Assembly (NCBI GenBank): GCA_964587725.1
Contig: CAZPLO010000017.1
Span: 1 to 22,514, forward strand
DNA from: an uncultured archaeon
Lineage (GTDB): Archaea > Altiarchaeota > Altiarchaeia > IMC4 > SCGC-AAA252-I15
Reading direction: 5' to 3'
Length of the DNA stretch: 22,514 bases
This document shows, one piece after another, positions 9,881 to 18,379 of the stretch. The translations under genes and the position numbers were made by a program. Every line of letters starts with the position of its first letter. Within the stretch, counting starts at the first letter, position 1. The notes beneath the pieces are model-generated. The model had not been told where the DNA came from. It was given only the letters and a program-made list of their open reading frames with translations, and did not search any database.

Positions 9881-9912
9881 CTTTTTAAAGGGGTTATGCC
9901 TTATTATTGAAC

Positions 9913-10734
9913 ATGCGTTCCATCGTCACCTTACTGGCTCTGGTGGTTGCAGGCTTGTTGGTTTCAGGTTGCACGCAGCCCAGCTGCGACGACGGCGTCC
10001 AAAACGGGCTTGAATCCGGGGTGGACTGCGGGGGACCCTGTGAGCCCTGCACAACATCCACCACACAACCGGAGACGGAGTGCAGCGTGCTGTCCGGGGA
10101 AGAAAAGGATATCTGCTTCTGGAACATAGCGGTAGACTCTCTTAGAGCGGATTTATGCGGGCGAGTTAGCGACAGCTTCAGACGCGACCACTGCATACGG
10201 AGCATAGCGCCTGAACTCAACGACTCCCAGTTGTGCATGGAAATCAAAGACCGTTTCGAACAGATTGAGTGCCTTAAGGAGGTTGCCGTGAAGAAGAAAG
10301 ATGCCGGCATATGCGAGGGCATCGACGACACAGCACAGAGGGACACCTGCCTGTACCGGGTAGGCTACGACACCAAATCAAACCAGACCTGCGGCAAAAT
10401 AGGGGCTGACGCGTCCCGGCTCAGGTGCCTGGCCCTCATCAACAAAGACGAGAGCTACTGTGAGAGGATAGAGAACGCTAGGGGGAGGGACTACTGCTAC
10501 AGCCGGCTGGCGACGGTGACCCCGGAGGTCTGGCTGTGCAGGACCATAAACGACACCGATGCGGCGGACGAATGCTTCATGTACGTGGCGGAGAAGAACC
10601 TCAACAACAAAACCTGCCTGGAGCTCAACGACAAAACCAGGATGCCTGAGTGCACCGCGAACGTCGCAGAGGTGGTGGAGAGGATGAACGAGCTCGTGTC
10701 AGGCATAGAAGGCGGCCGGATAGAGCCGGTTTAG
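9913..10734 (+). CDS. Cys-rich repeat surface lipoprotein
   Basis: Signal peptide with lipobox LVSGC; CDDGVQNGLESGVDCGGPCEPC module; Thr-rich linker; eight ~25-aa two-Cys repeats. Confidence 0.85.
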   Translation: MRSIVTLLALVVAGLLVSGCTQPSCDDGVQNGLESGVDCGGPCEPCTTSTTQPETECSVLSGEEKDICFWNIAVDSLRADLCGRVSDSFRRDHCIRSIAPELNDSQLCMEIKDRFEQIECLKEVAVKKKDAGICEGIDDTAQRDTCLYRVGYDTKSNQTCGKIGADASRLRCLALINKDESYCERIENARGRDYCYSRLATVTPEVWLCRTINDTDAADECFMYVAEKNLNNKTCLELNDKTRMPECTANVAEVVERMNELVSGIEGGRIEPV

Positions 10735-11947: not shown

Positions 11948-11995
11948 ATCAACCGCCTGTTGGACAGAAACTAGGATACTTATATGCTTTATTCG

Positions 11996-12322
11996 TTAAA
12001 AAAGGGTTCTTTTACGGGGTACGGTGACCTCGAGGACCTCGTTCCTGAAGGTTATGGACGCTTGGTCTCTGCCGAGGCCTCGGGCCCTGAAGAAGCCGGA
12101 ATACATTTTGAATCCGTTTTCGACTACGGAGACGCGGACGCCATCTTCAAGGACGATTACGCGTATGTCGTCGGGCCTTATGCCGGGCAGCTCCGCAGTC
12201 AGGGAGACGCTGTCTTCGGACTCCCGGAACTCCACATACGGTTCCAAACCGTAGTTTTGGACGCTCATGAAGTCCATGATGTGCCTGCCCAGCCGCCACA
12301 GAAAGTCGTCTAAGTCTTCCAC
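11996..12322 (-). CDS. Small heat-shock (Hsp20/alpha-crystallin-like) protein
   Basis: EPYVEFRESED, AELPGIRPDDIRV and FRNEVLEVTVPR (cf. NGVLEV); GTG start. Confidence 0.75.
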   Translation of the reverse strand: MEDLDDFLWRLGRHIMDFMSVQNYGLEPYVEFRESEDSVSLTAELPGIRPDDIRVIVLEDGVRVSVVENGFKMYSGFFRARGLGRDQASITFRNEVLEVTVPRKRTLF

Positions 12323-12357: not shown

Positions 12358-12945
12358 GTGAAACTCTACAGGAAGGGGGCGGAGGCGAACCTCTACCTCG
12401 GCGACAGCCAGCTGGTGAAGAAGCGGGTTGAGAAAAAATACAGGCTGCCCGCCTTAGACAAACGGCTGAGGAAGCGGCGGACCCGCGGAGAGGCTAAGAA
12501 CATCGAACGCGCCCGGAAAGCAGGGATAAAGGCGCCGCGCGTGTTGAGGGTGGATGAGAAAGCCTACACCATAGAGATGGAGTACGTGGAGGGGAGGCTG
12601 GTGAAGGACGTGTTCGACCGCGGCGAACGCATTGAAGAACTGTCCCGTGAAATAGGGTCCATGCTCCGGCGCCTCCACGACAGCAAACTCGTACACAACG
12701 ACTTGACCACATCCAACCTCATACTCGGCGACGATGGCGTGTACGTGATAGACTTCGGCCTAGCATACCACACCACCCGCCTGGAAGACAAGGCCATGGA
12801 CCTCGTCGTGTTCAAGAAAAGCATTATGGCCACGCACACCATCCACGCAGACAAAATATGGGTGAACCTCGTCGAAGGCTACCAGCCCGGCAAGGAAATG
12901 CTGAAACGCGTGGAAACCATAGAGAACAGGGTCCGATACAAGTGA
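12358..12945 (+). CDS. bud32: KEOPS complex kinase/ATPase Bud32
   Basis: KGAEA, VKKRVEKKYR..LD..LR..RT..EA, HNDLTTSNLI, IDFGL, EDKAMDL. Confidence 0.95.
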   Translation: MKLYRKGAEANLYLGDSQLVKKRVEKKYRLPALDKRLRKRRTRGEAKNIERARKAGIKAPRVLRVDEKAYTIEMEYVEGRLVKDVFDRGERIEELSREIGSMLRRLHDSKLVHNDLTTSNLILGDDGVYVIDFGLAYHTTRLEDKAMDLVVFKKSIMATHTIHADKIWVNLVEGYQPGKEMLKRVETIENRVRYK

Positions 12946-12958
12946 AAAGGCTTATATA
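12944..12958 (+). promoter_or_regulatory. BRE-TATA promoter for the leader peptide/cimA transcript
   Basis: GAAAAGG followed by CTTATATA; the TATA ends 28 nt before ATG 12987. Confidence 0.65.
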
Positions 12959-12986
12959 CTCTTCCCTCCTAATTCATTGTTGTAGG

Positions 12987-13049
12987 ATGGATTCCAGCAC
13001 AGCCGATAGGGCTTTGGAAGGCATCATATTCTGCATTATTGGAGCTTAG
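12987..13049 (+). CDS. Putative Ile-rich leader peptide of the cimA operon (MDSSTADRALEGIIFCIIGA)
   Basis: 20 codons, with 4 Ile in 6 codons (ATC ATA TTC TGC ATT ATT) just before the stop; upstream TATA; precedes citramalate synthase. Confidence 0.65.
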   Translation: MDSSTADRALEGIIFCIIGA

Positions 13050-13091
13050 GCTCCACACTACTATTCCTCCATCCGGTTTCGAAGGTTTTTT
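13040..13091 (+). terminator. Candidate attenuator: stop-codon hairpin plus downstream U6 tract
   Basis: TGGAGC-TTAG-GCTCCA (13040-13055) and TTTTTT (13086-13091). Confidence 0.4.
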
Positions 13092-13108
13092 GCGGTTAAA
13101 CGCATATA
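13088..13108 (+). promoter_or_regulatory. Upstream motif shared with ilvB (TTTTGCGGTTAAACGCATATA)
   Basis: 19/21 identical to the minus strand of 3888-3908; ends 18 nt before the cimA ATG. Confidence 0.6.
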
Positions 13109-13126
13109 ATATGGAGTTCACATACG

Positions 13127-14608
13127 ATGGCTAGGATATTGTTTTTGGACACGACGTTGCGGGACGGCGAGCAGACGCCGGGGGTTTCGCTGGCGCCGGA
13201 GGACAAGCTTAGGATAGCTAAGGCCCTTGATGACTTGGGTGTGGACGTGATAGAGGCTGGGAGCGCATGCACCAGCGAAGGCGAACGGGAGGGCATAAAG
13301 GAGATAGCCGCCGAAGGGTTGGATGCGGAGGTCTCAAGCTATGCGCGGCTGCTGAAGAACGACGTCGACCTGGCCCTCGAATGCGGCGTAGACAGCGTGT
13401 TCCTAGTGGCGCCTACGTCGGATTTGCACATCAAATGGAAGATTAAAAGCACCCGGGAGAAGGTATTGGAGAGGGTGGCCGAACTCACACGGTACTGCAA
13501 GGACCAGGGCGCGCTGGTGGATTTGTGCTGCGAAGACGGGAGCAGGACGGACGTCGAATACCTTCGTAAGGTGATGAATGCGGCCGTGGACGCTGGCGCC
13601 GACCGCTTCACGGTGGCGGACACCGTCGGCGTCTTGAACCCGGAGAAGACGGAGGAAATGTTCACTGAACTCAGCAAAAAAGCTAAGGTGCCGGTGGGGG
13701 TGCACTGCCACGACGACTTCGGCATGGCCACAGCCAACACCGTCACCGCCGTAAAAGCCGGCGCGAGGGTGGTGAATGTGACGGTTAACGGCTTGGGCGA
13801 ACGGGCGGGAAACACACCATTGGAGGAGGTTGCCGTCGCCCTACGGCTTACCACCGGCCACAAATTCAACCTCAGGATAGAGGGCGTGAACAAGGTCAGC
13901 CGATTGGTGGAGAAGTTAACAGGCATATCGGTGCCGCCGAACAAGGCGATAGTCGGCGAGAACGCGTTCACCCACGAGGCAGGCATCCACGTCGACGGCA
14001 TACTTAAGAAGCCCAGCACCTACGAACCCATCAAACCGGAGATAGTCGGGGCGAGGAGGAGGTTCGTTTTGGGGAAGCACGTGGGCTTCAAGAGCGTGAA
14101 GAAGATGCTGGAGGAGTCCGGCTTCAAGGTGAACGACGAGCAGGCCAAGGAAGTGTATGAGCAGGTGAAGTACATAGGCGACAAGGGGAAGAGGGTCACA
14201 TCAGTGGACCTAGACACCATAGCAAACAGCGTCCTCGGGCTGGAGAAGGAGAAACCCATCAAATTGGTTGAGCTGAGGGCTGAGGCGGGCAACAGGATAA
14301 CGCCGACGGCGACGGTGAAACTGAAGATAAACGGAGACACCATCACCTCTAAGGGCAGCGGCACCGGCCCCGTGGACGCCGCCATAAACGCCATAAAGGT
14401 GGCGACAAAGGACGTGCCGTTCGAGCTCGCAGAATACCACGTGGACGCCGTGTCCGGCGGCACGGACGCCGTGGTGCGGATACTGGTGAAATTGAAGAGC
14501 AGGGGCAAGATAGTCACGGCGGAGGGGGCGGGCGCCGACATCGTGTTGGCGTCGGTGGACGCGATGATAAACGGCTTGAACGCCATCATACTCCGGCAAC
14601 AGAGTTAA
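13127..14608 (+). CDS. cimA: (R)-citramalate synthase (LeuA/CimA family)
   Basis: DTTLRDGEQTPG, HCHDDFGMA, GLGERAGN, HEAGIH and a C-terminal regulatory domain with GPVDA. IEAGSA..SEGEREGIK matches methanogen-type CimA rather than LeuA (EAGFP). Confidence 0.85.
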   Translation: MARILFLDTTLRDGEQTPGVSLAPEDKLRIAKALDDLGVDVIEAGSACTSEGEREGIKEIAAEGLDAEVSSYARLLKNDVDLALECGVDSVFLVAPTSDLHIKWKIKSTREKVLERVAELTRYCKDQGALVDLCCEDGSRTDVEYLRKVMNAAVDAGADRFTVADTVGVLNPEKTEEMFTELSKKAKVPVGVHCHDDFGMATANTVTAVKAGARVVNVTVNGLGERAGNTPLEEVAVALRLTTGHKFNLRIEGVNKVSRLVEKLTGISVPPNKAIVGENAFTHEAGIHVDGILKKPSTYEPIKPEIVGARRRFVLGKHVGFKSVKKMLEESGFKVNDEQAKEVYEQVKYIGDKGKRVTSVDLDTIANSVLGLEKEKPIKLVELRAEAGNRITPTATVKLKINGDTITSKGSGTGPVDAAINAIKVATKDVPFELAEYHVDAVSGGTDAVVRILVKLKSRGKIVTAEGAGADIVLASVDAMINGLNAIILRQQS

Positions 14609-14636: not shown

Positions 14637-15887
14637 ATGCCGACGATTTCGGAGAAGATACTGGCCGCCAAAGCGGGCGTGAAGGAGGTGACGCCGGGGG
14701 AGATTGTGGAGGCCGAAGTAGACTACGTCATGGTAAACGACGTCACCGGCCTGCCGGCGTTCGAGGCCATAGAGGAGCTGGGGCACCCGCCGATACGCGA
14801 GAAGACGGTGCTGATACCCGACCATTACGTGCCGAACAAGGACATACCCAGCGCCGAGCAGGCGAAGAGCATGAGGGTGTTCGCCCGCAAATACGACATA
14901 GAAAACTACTTCGAAGTCGGCCGCGGTGGCGTATGCCATCAGCTGATGATAGAGAAGGGATACGTCGCACCCGGCCGGCTCATCATAGGGGCTGACAGCC
15001 ACACCTGCAGCTACGGCGCCCTCGGAGCCTTCGCAACGGGTGTCGGCAGCACCGAGGCTGCGTGCGCGATGGCTTCCGGCAGCCTGTGGTTCAAGGTTCC
15101 TGAAACCCAACGATTCACCGTCGACGGCGAACGGAAAGAGTATGTGATGGGGAAGGACATCATACTCCACGTCATAGGAGACATAGGCGTGAAGGGCTCA
15201 CTGTATAAGACGATGGAGTGGTACGGCAGCACCATCGAAGAACTTCCGCTGGCGGACAGGATAAGCATATCCAACATGGCCATCGAAGCGGGCGGGAAGG
15301 CTGGAGTAATACCTGCGGACAAGAAGGTGGACGAATACCTTGAGGGTAGGGTGCGAGGACAGTACAAGCCCGTGTACAGCGACGACGATGCGAGATACTG
15401 TGAAGAGTTCACGTACGACGCCGGTGAAATAGAGTGCACGGTGGCGGAGCCGTATCTGCCGGAGAACGCTAAACCCGTCAGCGAAGTGGATGTGGAGATA
15501 CAGCAGGCTTACCTTGGCTCATGCACCAACGGCCGCATAGAGGACATGCGGGTGGCGGCGGAGATAATCAGGGGGAGGGAGGTGCACCCTTATGTCAGGA
15601 TGATAGTTGTTCCCGCAAGCCAGGACGTCATGGACAAGATGATAACAGAGGGACTGTACGAAGTATTCAGTAAAGCGGGGGCGTACGTGTCTGGACCCAC
15701 CTGCGGAGCCTGTCTCGGAGGATACATGGGGGTGCTGGCGGAAGGCGAAGTCGCCGTGTCCTCGACGAACAGGAACTTCATAGGCCGGATGGGCCATAAG
15801 GAAAGCAGAGTGTATCTCGCCAACCCCGCGGTGGTGGCCGCGTCCGCGGTAACGGGGAAGATAACGGACCCGGGTGATTTGAAGTGA
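14637..15887 (+). CDS. leuC: 3-isopropylmalate/citramalate dehydratase large subunit
   Basis: [40 protein letters not shown]. Confidence 0.95.
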
Positions 15888-16375
15888 AGGACAGAATCAA
15901 AGGACGTGTGTGGGTGTTCGGAGACAATGTCGACACGGACCAGATAATCCCCGCCGAATACCTGGTCACCGGAGACCCGGTGGAGCTGGGGAAACACGCG
16001 TTCGAACGGGTGAGGCCGGAGTTCACCGAAGGCGTTAAAGAAGGGGACGTAATAGTGGCGGGGGAGAACTTCGGGTGCGGAAGCAGCAGAGAGCATGCGC
16101 CGAGGGCACTGATGGGCTGCGGCGTACAGTGCGTGATAGCCAAAAGCTTCGCCCGCATATTCTACAGAAACAGCATCAACATCGGCCTGCCGCTGGTGGA
16201 GTGTGCCGTCGACGTGGAAGAAGGCGGCGAAGTGGAAGTAGACTACAAGAAAGGCACGGTCAAAAACCTAAAAACGGGGGAGGAATACGAGTTCAAGGCG
16301 CTGCCCGACTTCCTGCTGAAGCTTATAGAGGCTGGGGGACTGATAGAATACACGAGGGGGAAATTAGCCCGGTGA
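15884..16375 (+). CDS. leuD: 3-isopropylmalate/citramalate dehydratase small subunit
   Basis: [31 protein letters not shown]; GTGA overlap with leuC. Confidence 0.95.
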
Positions 16376-18379
16376 TTCCCTCCTCTGCCTGAACAAATCC
16401 AGTACCGAGTGGGTGGCCTCCAATCCACCTTCAGCGTTTTTCCTGAAGCCTTCTCCCAGGTCGTATGTCAGAAGGATGTGGTGTCCCGAGGGGTTGAGGT
16501 TTTCATATCCTGCTTCACGCAGCCGCCTGGACTCCCTCGCCTGCAGGTCGAAGTAGTCTTCCTCTCTAAGGGACCCCAGCACACGCGCCCGGTAGGAGTC
16601 GACTCCGAGCGTCACCTTCGGCGTGCCGTCTTCGTTGAGATTCAGCCTCCCCTCCTCGGTGAAGGTCATCAGCAGCTTATGCGGCTCATCCTCGGAGTCC
16701 AAACCGACTTCCGCAAGCTGCTGTTTACTCGTTGAAAGGATTTCCTTGTAGCCTTCCGGGGTGACCACGTCTTTTTCAAGCGCGTGCACCAAGTCTATGT
16801 AACCCCAGTGCCCCTCCTGCCGGTAGCCTTCAAGGGGGTCCAGTCCGCCCCAATAACCCCATATTGTTATGTAGGCGCGGTCCGGGCGCAGGACAGGGTG
16901 GCCTGACGGATTTAGTATTGCATCAGGGGCCATGAACCTGCTTTGGTCTGAAGGCTGCGAAGGCAGCATCTCGTTGCCGCACATGTAGATTGCCCGCGGG
17001 TAAGTTGTCCTTATTCCGCGTTTCCTCAGCTCCTCCGCAATCCTTGCCTCCTCGAAGGGGCTGTTGAAGCCGTGGCCGGCGGCCTCACCCGCGGATTCGC
17101 CGTACTCGGCCGCAGGGTCCAAACCCACCCTCGACATCTGCCACACCAGGTGTACGTCGTCCCTTGTTTTCGTGTGGTAGATTTCATGTGTGGGGGACAG
17201 CTTTGTCTTGGAAGCCCAGTACCACCTCTCAGGGCGGAAGTAGTCGAACAAGTCAGGGTCCCTTCCGACCACGAAGAGCTCTCCGCCGGTGCTTTCCGTA
17301 GGCCCCCACACGTAGTCGACACCCAACACGTTATGGGGCCTCAGGTTCTGGGGATACCTGGTCTGCGGAGGCGGGGTGAAACGGTTGATCAGATGACGGA
17401 AGTATTCGGCGCGCCTCTGATGCTGGTGATAGACTTCATGCTCCCTTGTCCGCTCAAGAAGCTCAAAGTCCACCAGCGCATACACTGGCTTCCCCTCCCG
17501 GTCCCGTAGGATGGAACCGTCCTTACTTCTCCTCCGTAGTATGAAGTGGTGGGGTTTTGTGTCAGCCACCGTATAGCCTTTCCGCTCCATGTCGTCGATC
17601 ACGGTGTGCATGAGCGAGACCACATCCTCCTTGGTGAACACTCCAGCAGCCATCATTTCTGCCGCGTCCTCCCCCTTAACCCAGCCGTACAATACCGCGT
17701 ACTGGCGTTGGAGGTCTATGCCGACGGACTCGCTCTCCGCCTTCCCCGCCTGATCCTCCCTCATCGTCTTCTGATGCGATTCGAACACATACTTCCGCCG
17801 CCCCATCCTCAAGGGCTCAACCTCCCCACGGGGGGAGAATATGGCCAGCGGCCTCTGGGTGAGAATCTTCACACTGGGGTTGCCGTGCTCGCCCGCCCGC
17901 AACTCCATGAGAAACCCGAACTCCTCGAAGGGGCTGTTGAATCTTGCAGAATAAGAGTTTAGTCTCCTCATCTTACTCGCAAGCTCAGGGTGTTCAATAC
18001 TCAATGCCGGGTCCATGGGGTCGCCGGGTATGTCGCTGCCCACCCGGTTCCATTTAACGACGATGTCTGCGGATTTGCCGTCCACTTCGTTGGTCTGAAC
18101 ATGATATGATGTGCCTGTTCCACCCAGCCTCTCACCCCCCTTATGGTAGCGGCCGTCGGCGTACCAGTTCTCTGGCTGAAGCTGGTTCCTCCACGGCCAA
18201 CCCCACCTGCTCAGGTAGAGGTCGCCGTGTTCCGTTTTCATGTGGACGTAGTCTACGTCGAACACCCGGACCATGCGGGCGTTCTCCGGAAGCGCCTTAA
18301 GGCCCACCGGGAAGTCCCCGGCGCTGTGGGGAATGTATCTGGGGTCGCGTTCACGGGGGTCCCCCCTGGCCTGGGCCAT
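16364..18379 (-). CDS. Hypothetical protein with tandem-duplicated atypical kinase-like domains
   Basis: 671 aa. Domain 1: GGTGTSY, IVVKW, FNSPFEE, DTKPHHFIL, LVDFELL. Domain 2 repeats VDYV, F/Q-x-PE-x-WY, SRVG, FNSPFEE and P-x-AI but lacks the catalytic residues. Confidence 0.85.
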   Translation of the reverse strand: MAQARGDPRERDPRYIPHSAGDFPVGLKALPENARMVRVFDVDYVHMKTEHGDLYLSRWGWPWRNQLQPENWYADGRYHKGGERLGGTGTSYHVQTNEVDGKSADIVVKWNRVGSDIPGDPMDPALSIEHPELASKMRRLNSYSARFNSPFEEFGFLMELRAGEHGNPSVKILTQRPLAIFSPRGEVEPLRMGRRKYVFESHQKTMREDQAGKAESESVGIDLQRQYAVLYGWVKGEDAAEMMAAGVFTKEDVVSLMHTVIDDMERKGYTVADTKPHHFILRRRSKDGSILRDREGKPVYALVDFELLERTREHEVYHQHQRRAEYFRHLINRFTPPPQTRYPQNLRPHNVLGVDYVWGPTESTGGELFVVGRDPDLFDYFRPERWYWASKTKLSPTHEIYHTKTRDDVHLVWQMSRVGLDPAAEYGESAGEAAGHGFNSPFEEARIAEELRKRGIRTTYPRAIYMCGNEMLPSQPSDQSRFMAPDAILNPSGHPVLRPDRAYITIWGYWGGLDPLEGYRQEGHWGYIDLVHALEKDVVTPEGYKEILSTSKQQLAEVGLDSEDEPHKLLMTFTEEGRLNLNEDGTPKVTLGVDSYRARVLGSLREEDYFDLQARESRRLREAGYENLNPSGHHILLTYDLGEGFRKNAEGGLEATHSVLDLFRQRRESPG
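17048..17941. repeat. 21-bp exact direct repeat pair (17048-17068 and 17921-17941)
   Basis: CTCCTCGAAGGGGCTGTTGAA in both copies; encodes FNSPFEE on the minus strand. Confidence 0.9.

Follow-up and report, generated by a model that had tools for sequence, protein, structure and literature searches.

A candidate isoleucine-sensing leader peptide upstream of cimA-leuCD in a lineage of uncultured Altiarchaeota

We analysed 22,514 nucleotides (nt) of DNA from an uncultured archaeon of the Altiarchaeota (contig CAZPLO010000017.1; this whole stretch is called the window) and focused on the gap in front of cimA, a gene of the (R)-citramalate synthase family, where a short upstream open reading frame (uORF) with clustered isoleucine (Ile) codons ends inside a predicted hairpin. 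The gap runs for 181 nt from bud32, a gene of the Bud32 kinase family with a TGA stop codon at 12943-12945, to cimA, while the other same-strand junctions in the window overlap or measure at most about 45 nt; the unusual gap length that the initial annotation had pointed out is thus confirmed. All features described here lie on the plus strand and, unless stated otherwise, are placed by reading the sequence. The leader promoter (12944-12958) consists of a purine stretch, GAAAAGGC, that resembles a transcription factor B recognition element (BRE), followed by the TATA box TTATATA (12952-12958). The leader open reading frame (ORF) occupies 12987-13049, begins with the ATG at 12987 and comprises 20 codons and a TAG, encoding the peptide MDSSTADRALEGIIFCIIGA. 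By codon counts, its Ile codons form the block ATC ATA TTC TGC ATT ATT (13023-13040; Ile13, Ile14, Ile17 and Ile18), with ATC at 13023, ATA at 13026 and ATT at 13035 and 13038, so that all three Ile codon types are present near the end of the frame. The stop-codon hairpin (13040-13055) has the stem TGGAGC (13040-13045)/GCTCCA (13050-13055) and the loop TTAG (13046-13049), which contains the stop codon TAG (13047-13049). A T6 tract follows at 13086-13091; it is a candidate oligo-U terminator or aCPSF1(FttA) site, or else the T-rich half of a cimA-proximal promoter. The uORF ends 77 nt before cimA-leuCD and has the same orientation. We therefore recover the arrangement first described in the initial annotation, from BRE/TATA to cimA-leuCD, feature for feature and at the same positions, including the four clustered Ile codons. 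The locus is found in four sequencing runs, all of DNA and from a single study of microbial-mat metagenomes.

The three genes downstream are transcribed in one direction. Family profiles assign 13127-14608 to the (R)-citramalate synthase family (cimA; 493 amino acids (aa), with a C-terminal LeuA-dimer regulatory domain), and it is followed by leuC (14637-15887) and leuD (15884-16375), which encode the subunits of an isopropylmalate/citramalate isomerase. The synthase matches TIGR02090 and NF002085 above their cut-offs, both being subfamily-level NCBIfam matches only within the isopropylmalate/citramalate/homocitrate synthase family, as well as the Pfam families PF00682, PF22617 and PF08502. 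Its nearest methanogen relatives (55-57% identity) are named CimA by NCBI, and JGI names the orthologues of the window synthase citramalate synthase and the orthologues of its paralogue 2-isopropylmalate synthase. The labels cimA and leuA used here are these annotation names, with which the gene name in the initial annotation agrees; a comparison of solved structures did not separate CimA from LeuA. The paralogue is 45-50% identical to the window synthase in each genome, and the copy of the window genome lies at the end of contig C38.

We searched 41 related genomes with the synthase protein and inspected the DNA upstream of each orthologue. All of these genomes are metagenome bins, for which an absence means not found in those searched, and as relatives they are non-independent samples. 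The family of the window genome (f1) is represented by 21 genomes, of which 20 have an orthologue and 19 have readable upstream sequence. In 14 of these 19 genomes, spread over seven of nine genera, cimA is preceded by a leaderless uORF that ends in I-I-(I)-G-[AGTL] (E-G in one case). In these leaders a TATA box lies about 30 nt ahead of the start of the short ORF, whose stop codon is located in a hairpin loop. A conserved short ORF with Ile clusters before orthologous cimA genes, which the initial annotation had proposed to look for, is thus present in this family. We did not find the Ile leader before cimA in four g8 genomes and one g9 genome of f1, nor in any of 14 genomes from other families of the order. 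Outside the order, about 70 orthologues from Methanoperedens, Hadarchaeota, Bathyarchaeia, Methanothrix and others have no Ile-rich uORF (at least four Ile in eight residues), and among 80 loci of a genome collection the seven records with such a frame are all from Altiarchaeota. Metagenome contigs provided 77 loci with enough upstream DNA; the leader is present in six, all with at least 78% CimA identity, and a seventh contig (L179) carries a weaker version of it.

What is conserved in these leaders is the end of the peptide. Their lengths vary from 12 to 26 codons, no relationship is seen between their N-terminal portions, and only the C-terminal I-I-(I)-G-[AG] is shared. The third codon before the stop is Ile in all 14 leaders (ATT in 13, ATC in one), the fourth is Ile in 13 (ATT in seven, ATA in six), and the fifth and eighth are Ile in eight and nine leaders, respectively. 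Overall, Ile accounts for 62 of 291 internal leader codons, compared to about 4.9% in the proteome. This pattern suggests that the leader is constrained as coding sequence, its cognate codons being kept as amino acids while they change synonymously. The leader peptides have no Pfam or NCBIfam match up to an expectation value (E) of 10, and their exact sequences are not in a collection of 15 billion proteins.

A number of loci show individual peculiarities in this region. Five Ile leaders (L004, L008, L009, L013 and L017) have ATT AGC ATA G(G/A/C)C in common 5' of their last Ile codons. One of them, L004, looks as though the hairpin unit had undergone tandem duplication, with AGCATAGGCTCCA forming a second copy of its 3' half in a different frame. 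On the metagenome contig L175, about 85-110 nt upstream of cimA, the loop reads TCC in place of a stop codon and the frame extends for four codons (IIIIGGSASN) to a TAA just after the hairpin, separating hairpin and stop position. The g8 loci L015 and L016 carry a different conserved block 100-190 nt upstream of cimA, ACGAAACGATAATG...CATTTTTTC..CCAAAATC, which holds a phenylalanine (Phe)-rich open frame that reads M..HIFSNPKSFFPQLFPSF in one locus and MNLHFFKPKSFFPHEF in the other.

The hairpin is the second conserved component of the Ile leader. It is predicted in all 14 genome leaders, with folding free energies of -7.9 to -11.3 kcal/mol, and each time the loop contains the stop codon. The arms differ from locus to locus and remain paired (GGAGC/GCTCC, GGGGGC/GCCTCC, GGGACT/AGTCCC, GAAGGC/GCCTTC, GGGGCC/GGCTCC and GGGC/GCCC). 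In a model-guided alignment of 12 sequences, which is fitted to the structure and thereby favours the pairing score, 98.6% of cells are paired, both sides change at three of the six pairs, and one of 500 column shuffles reaches the observed score. As a control, sliding the 3' partner by one to three columns leaves 23-53% paired. At E of at most 0.05, two covariance models (R1 and R2) recognise the leader in 10 of the 21 family genomes, each time at a single site, which in every case precedes cimA; four more divergent copies of the leader were recognised by eye alone and not by a covariance model. Rfam gave no match in the window or in four loci of the leucine (Leu) leader described below, either at the gathering threshold or with E up to 1-10, and ARAGORN found no transfer RNA (tRNA) in the window. 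Behind the hairpin, the next 20 nt contain no or one G in eight of 14 loci; in the window this region is a G-free, C/A/U-rich tract of 19 nt, CACTACTATTCCTCCATCC (13056-13074). As judged from these alignments, the hairpin appears to be placed so that the position of a ribosome decides whether it forms.

A second leader, with Leu in the place of Ile, is found before the paralogue. In the window genome, a leaderless ORF of 32 codons, MKEGSCIYGCVTLDEEFFSGNPVLRLLLLLRA, ends VLRLLLLLRA upstream of leuA (minus strand of C38, about 1120-1218; locus L042), with its stop codon inside a long hairpin. The leuA gene itself is incomplete in the assembly, the contig ending within it (fragment C38:2-1048). 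A relative, G016, has the leuA leader MEGGSYIYWTVEADEYSRGNPILQLLLLLRLRA. We collected the leuA upstream regions of 32 further genomes, two of which were too short to read, and find a Leu-rich leader in 18 genomes including the window genome and G016, of which 15 are from f1 (including genus g8), one from f4 and two from f3. These leaders are leaderless frames of 30-40 codons with five to seven consecutive Leu codons. Leu occupies positions -5 to -9 from the stop in 16-18 of the 18 leaders, and TTG, TTA, CTT, CTG, CTA and CTC are all used. The first base of these codons therefore switches between T and C while the amino acid is kept, which is not how an RNA motif behaves. Across the Leu leaders, Leu makes up 149 of 573 codons and Ile 19. 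The stop lies in the 5' arm or the loop of an 11-bp hairpin predicted by RNAalifold, with compensatory changes at six pairs. Most of the 18 leaders are also predicted to form an outer helix between codons 3-5 and the codons immediately preceding the run of Leu, with quite different sequences in f3; this helix is not more stable than in shuffled sequences (mean z -0.5), and neither are the first 20 codons of the leaders. A covariance model of the Leu leader (R3) finds a single copy per genome, at leuA in all 18 confident matches, and none in 12 genomes of the phylum outside the order. Weaker R3 matches in G018:C38 and G036:C135 were examined and are false positives rather than leaders.

The pairing of the two leaders with their genes, Ile with cimA and Leu with leuA, is in our view the most persuasive single indication that the signal lies in the identity of the codons. 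Across these two paralogous targets, the type of codon in the leader appears specific to the pathway of the gene that follows. A strong Shine-Dalgarno (SD) sequence, GGAGGUG, precedes leuA, which implies that the leuA mRNA is leadered. The leuA proteins of the leader-bearing lineages are about 507 aa long and share a conserved N-terminal extension, M-[DN]-Q-F-W-Y-[DN]-[KR]-K (for example, L041:6771-8291); those of families without the leader have about 491-496 aa. This N-terminal extension may be tied to the regulatory region.

The promoters of the leaders are consistent with translation from the very 5' end of the transcript. All 14 Ile leaders have an A/T run of at least six between -45 and -22 of the uORF ATG, the box itself lying at about -38 to -25, and by eye the 18 Leu leaders show the same arrangement. 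Also by eye, most of the 32 leader promoters contain a (c/g)TATaT-like element near -14; in the window, this A/T-rich, promoter-proximal element is TAATTCAT (12970-12977), about 14 nt 5' of the uORF ATG. Genome-wide, the frequency of TATA-like motifs is highest between -35 and -26 relative to gene ATGs. Given this position of the peak, leaderless mRNAs appear to be common in this organism, and the uORF fits that class. A scan of the window for bacterial-type terminators and promoters gave no terminator-like site, although such a scan is uninformative for archaea.

Based on the conservation of the frame, the hairpin and the codon content, we judge the element to be real, conserved and lineage-specific. 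The 181-nt gap probably holds a ribosome-mediated amino-acid sensor of the leader-peptide type and, whatever its output, we have good reason to favour a cis-acting leader peptide that senses Ile. We infer that the uORF is translated, that the ribosome stalls on it, and that expression of cimA-leuCD goes up when Ile is short. In the mechanism that we propose, the promoter with its TATA box at 12952-12958 would make an essentially leaderless transcript whose first 20 codons end Ile-Ile-Phe-Cys-Ile-Ile-Gly-Ala-stop, the last Ile codons adjoining the 5' arm of the hairpin. A ribosome awaiting Ile-tRNA at codons 17-18, with a footprint reaching about 12-15 nt downstream, would mask the 5' arm, keeping the hairpin open and the 3' arm free. 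A ribosome at the stop codon would mask both arms, and the hairpin would close once that ribosome departs. The state of the hairpin would in this way report the supply of Ile-tRNA to an element downstream. The Leu leader could work with the same geometry: its Leu run is flanked by two predicted helices about one ribosome footprint apart, and the hairpin would read Leu-tRNA. It is because this anatomy is conserved that we take formation of the hairpin as the likely read-out of Ile-tRNA (or Leu-tRNA) supply.

The output of such a sensor is harder to assign. One possibility, which we favour only tentatively, is that read-through of the oligo-U tract, 31-38 nt ahead of cimA, is regulated through intrinsic termination, aCPSF1/FttA-dependent termination, or both. 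Within the 75 nt that precede cimA, 10 of 14 leader loci contain a T-run of at least six, as against none of 15 loci without the leader, and a run of at least five is present in 12 of the 14 genome leader loci; in this genome, runs of at least six occur within 100 nt upstream of 7% of gene starts. Oligo-U is described as the signal for termination in archaea, recognised by aCPSF1/FttA (PMC8716108), and FttA is reported to terminate optimally with U-rich RNA at -30 to -36 from the RNA 3' end (PMC11616081). Given this preference and a T-run that ends 31-38 nt before the ATG, termination would fall at about the cimA start. In L007 and L177, the spacer measures only 35-37 nt, which makes co-transcription of leader and cimA hard to avoid at these loci. 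We can also suggest, as a proposal that has somewhat less than an even chance of being right, that this Altiarchaeota lineage independently invented paired leaderless attenuators (Ile for cimA-leuCD and Leu for leuA) in which tRNA charging is relayed through a stop-codon hairpin to an archaeal, eukaryote-like transcription machinery, for example by gating of a U-tract read by aCPSF1(FttA).

A series of observations weighs against Ile sensing coupled to termination, either as a whole or in its output. When this genome stands alone, the Ile bias is ordinary: four Ile in the last 12 codons has p of about 2e-3, and the uORF ranks 165th of 1730 intergenic ATG-ORFs of 10-45 codons for single-residue enrichment. 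The predicted fold of 12978-13135 has z = -1.5 against shuffles. It is therefore conservation and covariation in the relatives, rather than statistics from a single genome, on which we judge the element to be real. The stop-in-loop arrangement is not absolute either, the stop of L175 lying 9 nt past the hairpin, and the hydrophobicity of several Ile leaders would suffice for small membrane peptides. With regard to the T-tract, its end is 31-38 nt from the cimA ATG in 10 of 12 loci, and hand counts on four further contigs give about 36-37 nt (several of the metagenome-contig spacings were counted by hand). This spacing is thus fixed to the gene, while the tract lies 36-78 nt from the hairpin and has no conserved stem. 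When the spacer is scanned with a matrix derived from the 32 leader promoters, its highest-scoring site reaches 5-11 bits in 12 of 14 loci, compared to 3.3 for the 99.9th percentile of coding DNA. The fixed distance together with the promoter-like score fits a promoter element better than a terminator. A T-run of at least five is missing in the leader loci L007, L013, L177 and L185, the last of these being the closest relative (a metagenome contig), and leuA spacers have no T-run of at least five apart from one inside a loop.

Our folding analyses point in the same direction. Folding of the 14 Ile loci under constraints from a ribosome footprint (free, stalled and stop states) gave no consistent change at the cimA ribosome-binding site (RBS), and none just before the T-tract, where no conserved antiterminator scheme was found. 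Thermodynamic folding, the only kind used here, yielded no conserved pair of mutually exclusive structures, be it terminator and antiterminator or RBS-sequestering and anti-sequestering. We found no conserved partner for the freed 3' arm of the hairpin. Pairing with the cimA RBS is no more probable for native Ile leader ORFs than for shuffled ones (mean pairing probability 0.17 versus 0.21 in 14 loci), and a stem enclosing the T-tract has 6.8 pairs versus 5.8 with shuffled flanks (16 loci), which is no difference. Nor is it apparent to us how a U-tract that has no hairpin could be kept from terminating transcription by a ribosome that has stalled 45-90 nt upstream. The proposal in the initial annotation that stalling at the Ile codons controls termination or initiation therefore divides into two parts. 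Its sensing part is strongly supported by the conservation and by the Leu twin; its output part is not, given that no terminator/antiterminator pair is conserved and that occlusion of the RBS equals that of shuffled sequences.

These results bring other explanations into consideration, the closest of which retains the sensor and moves the output downstream of transcription. A stalled or queued ribosome might alter cimA initiation, as in erm-type or mycobacterial poly-cysteine (poly-Cys) attenuation, or might shield the mRNA 5' end from 5'-to-3' decay, with no terminator involved. Such an output would suit the leuA spacers, which lack T-runs of at least five and yet have a strong SD, and also L007 and L177, whose spacers of 35-37 nt have no T-tract. 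Furthermore, CCTCCATCC (13066-13074) is predicted by RNAfold to pair with the GGAG..GATGG region of cimA in every ribosome state, in the window locus only, and the variant based on mRNA stability has the right sign and requires no alternative structure. Leaderless poly-Cys short ORFs (sORFs) of mycobacteria are reported to block RBS-sequestering structures (10.1101/834739), but in our lineage RBS accessibility does not change consistently between states in the 14 Ile loci or in the five of 18 Leu loci that were folded in this way, the native Ile ORFs sequester the RBS no more than shuffled ones, and only about half of the leader loci have an SD-like motif (GAGGT/GGAGG) ahead of cimA. Both leaders of this genome have a hairpin 5' arm that resembles the SD region of the gene downstream (TGGAGC at 13040-13045 versus TGGAGT at 13112-13117 for cimA; GCGGGCG versus GCGTGAG for the C38 leuA leader), a likeness that is not conserved among relatives. 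A freed 3' arm could therefore pair with the SD, but this would repress the gene on starvation, which is the wrong sign. We regard a post-transcriptional output as rather unlikely. The uORF might instead be a separate small unit that ends at the T-tract, with cimA expressed from its own promoter in the spacer and the peptide having a role of its own, or with interference between tandem promoters. In addition to the promoter-like scores, nine of 14 loci have a matrix-predicted start 4-10 nt 5' of the cimA ATG, and in f1 relatives that lack the leader (L015, L016, L028, L029 and L031) the TATA box of cimA is at the same distance from the ATG as the T-run is elsewhere. By hand count, hexamers such as TTAAAC or TATAAAC lie 21-27 nt from the ATG in several loci, and peptides such as MAGKNGFWMVFLGIVLVASAIIIGT resemble a membrane helix. 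However, the T-tracts lack the A-rich 3' half of the TTTTTAWA consensus of the TATA box in this lineage, T-runs of at least six are absent from the 15 promoters of loci without the leader, and the leuA SD argues for a long transcript. A peptide with its own role also fits poorly with conservation limited to the last four to five residues, with lengths of 12-26 codons, with the polar character of several of the peptides and with their absence from the protein families and the protein collection. Since a separate unit would moreover leave unexplained both the pairing of Ile-rich leaders with cimA and Leu-rich leaders with leuA and the covarying stop-codon hairpin, we consider it improbable.

Two further explanations dispense with the stall at cognate codons. 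If the nascent peptide sensed free Ile, in the manner of TnaC, the fungal arginine attenuator peptide or SpeFL, ...IIGA would stall termination at the stop codon in the loop and shut off what lies downstream. The conserved C-terminus is indeed the part that would occupy the exit tunnel and the peptidyl-transferase centre with the stop codon in the A site, the position of the stop relative to the hairpin is kept in all 14 genome loci, and the sign is right, high Ile giving repression with no starvation stall required. Nevertheless, runs of four to seven cognate codons are the signature of tRNA-charging sensors, and to our knowledge the small-molecule-sensing arrest peptides described so far are not made of repeats of the cognate residue. 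The residues before the stop (G-[AGTL] in the Ile leaders, R-L-R-[AEV] in the Leu leaders) are explained by the hairpin sequence, and L175 has four extra codons after IIIIGG. We accordingly give nascent-peptide sensing very little weight. The hairpin might finally be an operator for an RNA-binding protein or another factor, with the overlying frame incidental. It is the sole structure that is consistently predicted and, having no Rfam match, might be an undescribed RNA element. But all 14 genome loci preserve the frame as open, with its ATG about 30 nt after the TATA box and its stop in the loop, and the synonymous variation at Ile and Leu positions, including first-base switches between TTR and CTN, is not what an RNA motif would tolerate. 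An operator with an incidental frame is accordingly the explanation to which we assign the smallest weight, close to none.

Between the T6 tract and cimA, the sequence TTAAAC, CATATAATA and an SD-like GGAG (13113-13116) lie 5' of the ATG, together spanning 13096-13116. Three ORFs of the window, 16364-18379 on the minus strand and 9907-10734 and 11984-12313 on the plus strand (671, 275 and 109 aa), have no Pfam or NCBIfam match. Two composition screens of the genome left only the Ile and Leu leaders standing. Among the other candidates, a Trp-rich frame is an alternative frame of a small real gene and hence an artefact; MTRTTTDT before a spermidine-synthase-like gene, the top match of a composition screen, is also an artefact; and the Phe-rich and threonine (Thr)-rich short ORFs have no co-oriented gene downstream or lie inside a gene.

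Leader-peptide attenuation is a textbook outcome of coupled transcription and translation in bacteria, and archaea couple the two processes as well. The initial annotation knew of no amino-acid leader-peptide attenuator in archaea, and we found none in full-text searches of a literature collection in which most subscription journals are missing, so that absence is unproven. The Ile leader is thus a first candidate for an archaeal device of this kind. If the Ile and Leu leaders do sense tRNA charging through the ribosome, they would be the first natural example in archaea of regulation that relies on transcription-translation coupling, and the logic of their output would differ from the terminator/antiterminator switch of bacteria. 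The pair is a natural substrate for asking whether the archaeal ribosome instructs RNA polymerase or the fate of the mRNA. It also bears on how termination at oligo-U by aCPSF1/FttA responds to a leading ribosome and on whether leaderless initiation is fast enough for sensing. In practical terms, the leaders provide annotation rules that separate cimA from its leuA paralogues in this lineage, and searches for short conserved uORFs can uncover regulation in uncultured archaea.

Comparison with known systems places the two leaders close to the classical bacterial attenuators in anatomy. Like trpL, leuL, ilvL/ilvGMEDA, ivbL, hisL, thrL and pheL of E. coli, the window leader is a short, co-oriented ORF before a biosynthetic operon. 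The cognate codons are near the end of the ORF (Ile for the Ile branch, Leu for leuA) and are followed by two to four codons and a stop, the stop is in or next to a hairpin after the regulatory codons, and a U-tract precedes the gene in most Ile loci. The 1:2 structure of trpL is likewise a hairpin at or next to the stop codon after the regulatory codons. Unlike the classical attenuators, the leaders described here have an archaeal host, a leaderless mRNA and a TATA/BRE promoter, and they match no leader family in Rfam, Pfam or NCBIfam. They also have no conserved antiterminator/terminator pair, and their U-tract is 36-78 nt away, stemless and fixed to the gene start.

A factor-dependent arrangement is seen in mgtL/mgtA of Salmonella and tnaC of E. 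coli, where the leader ORFs are attenuators that depend on the factor Rho. The likeness lies in a leader ORF behind which come an unstructured, G-poor tract and a zone of factor-dependent termination. Unlike a clear factor-dependent case, the leuA leaders have no clear U-tracts, and a role for FttA is suggested here by analogy. FttA is reported to bind U-rich RNA 30-36 nt behind the RNA 3' end, and its exclusion by a coupled ribosome is suggested in the same work (PMC11616081).

The leaderless bacterial sensors offer a further parallel. The mycobacterial poly-Cys sORFs (10.1101/834739) and the ilvBNC leader of Corynebacterium glutamicum (PMC11857589) are reported to have, as here, a leaderless first ORF with no SD and a run of cognate codons, and the actinobacterial leaders resemble the Ile and Leu pair in having one sensor per operon, with several operons responding to the same amino-acid signal (a 'ribulon'). 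The outputs described for them differ from what we find: in mycobacteria the stalled ribosome is reported to block an RBS-sequestering structure (10.1101/834739), whereas the equivalent test was null here, native and shuffled ORFs being equal; and for C. glutamicum ilvBNC a three-hairpin terminator model is given (PMC11857589), in Actinobacteria that use a bacterial RNA polymerase, unlike the organisms studied here. Among archaea, riboswitches and transcription factors of the Lrp and TrpY types also control biosynthetic genes, but they do so by means of ligand-binding RNA or DNA-binding proteins. Unlike in these known forms of archaeal regulation, the defining feature of the Ile and Leu leaders is the codon content of a putatively translated frame.

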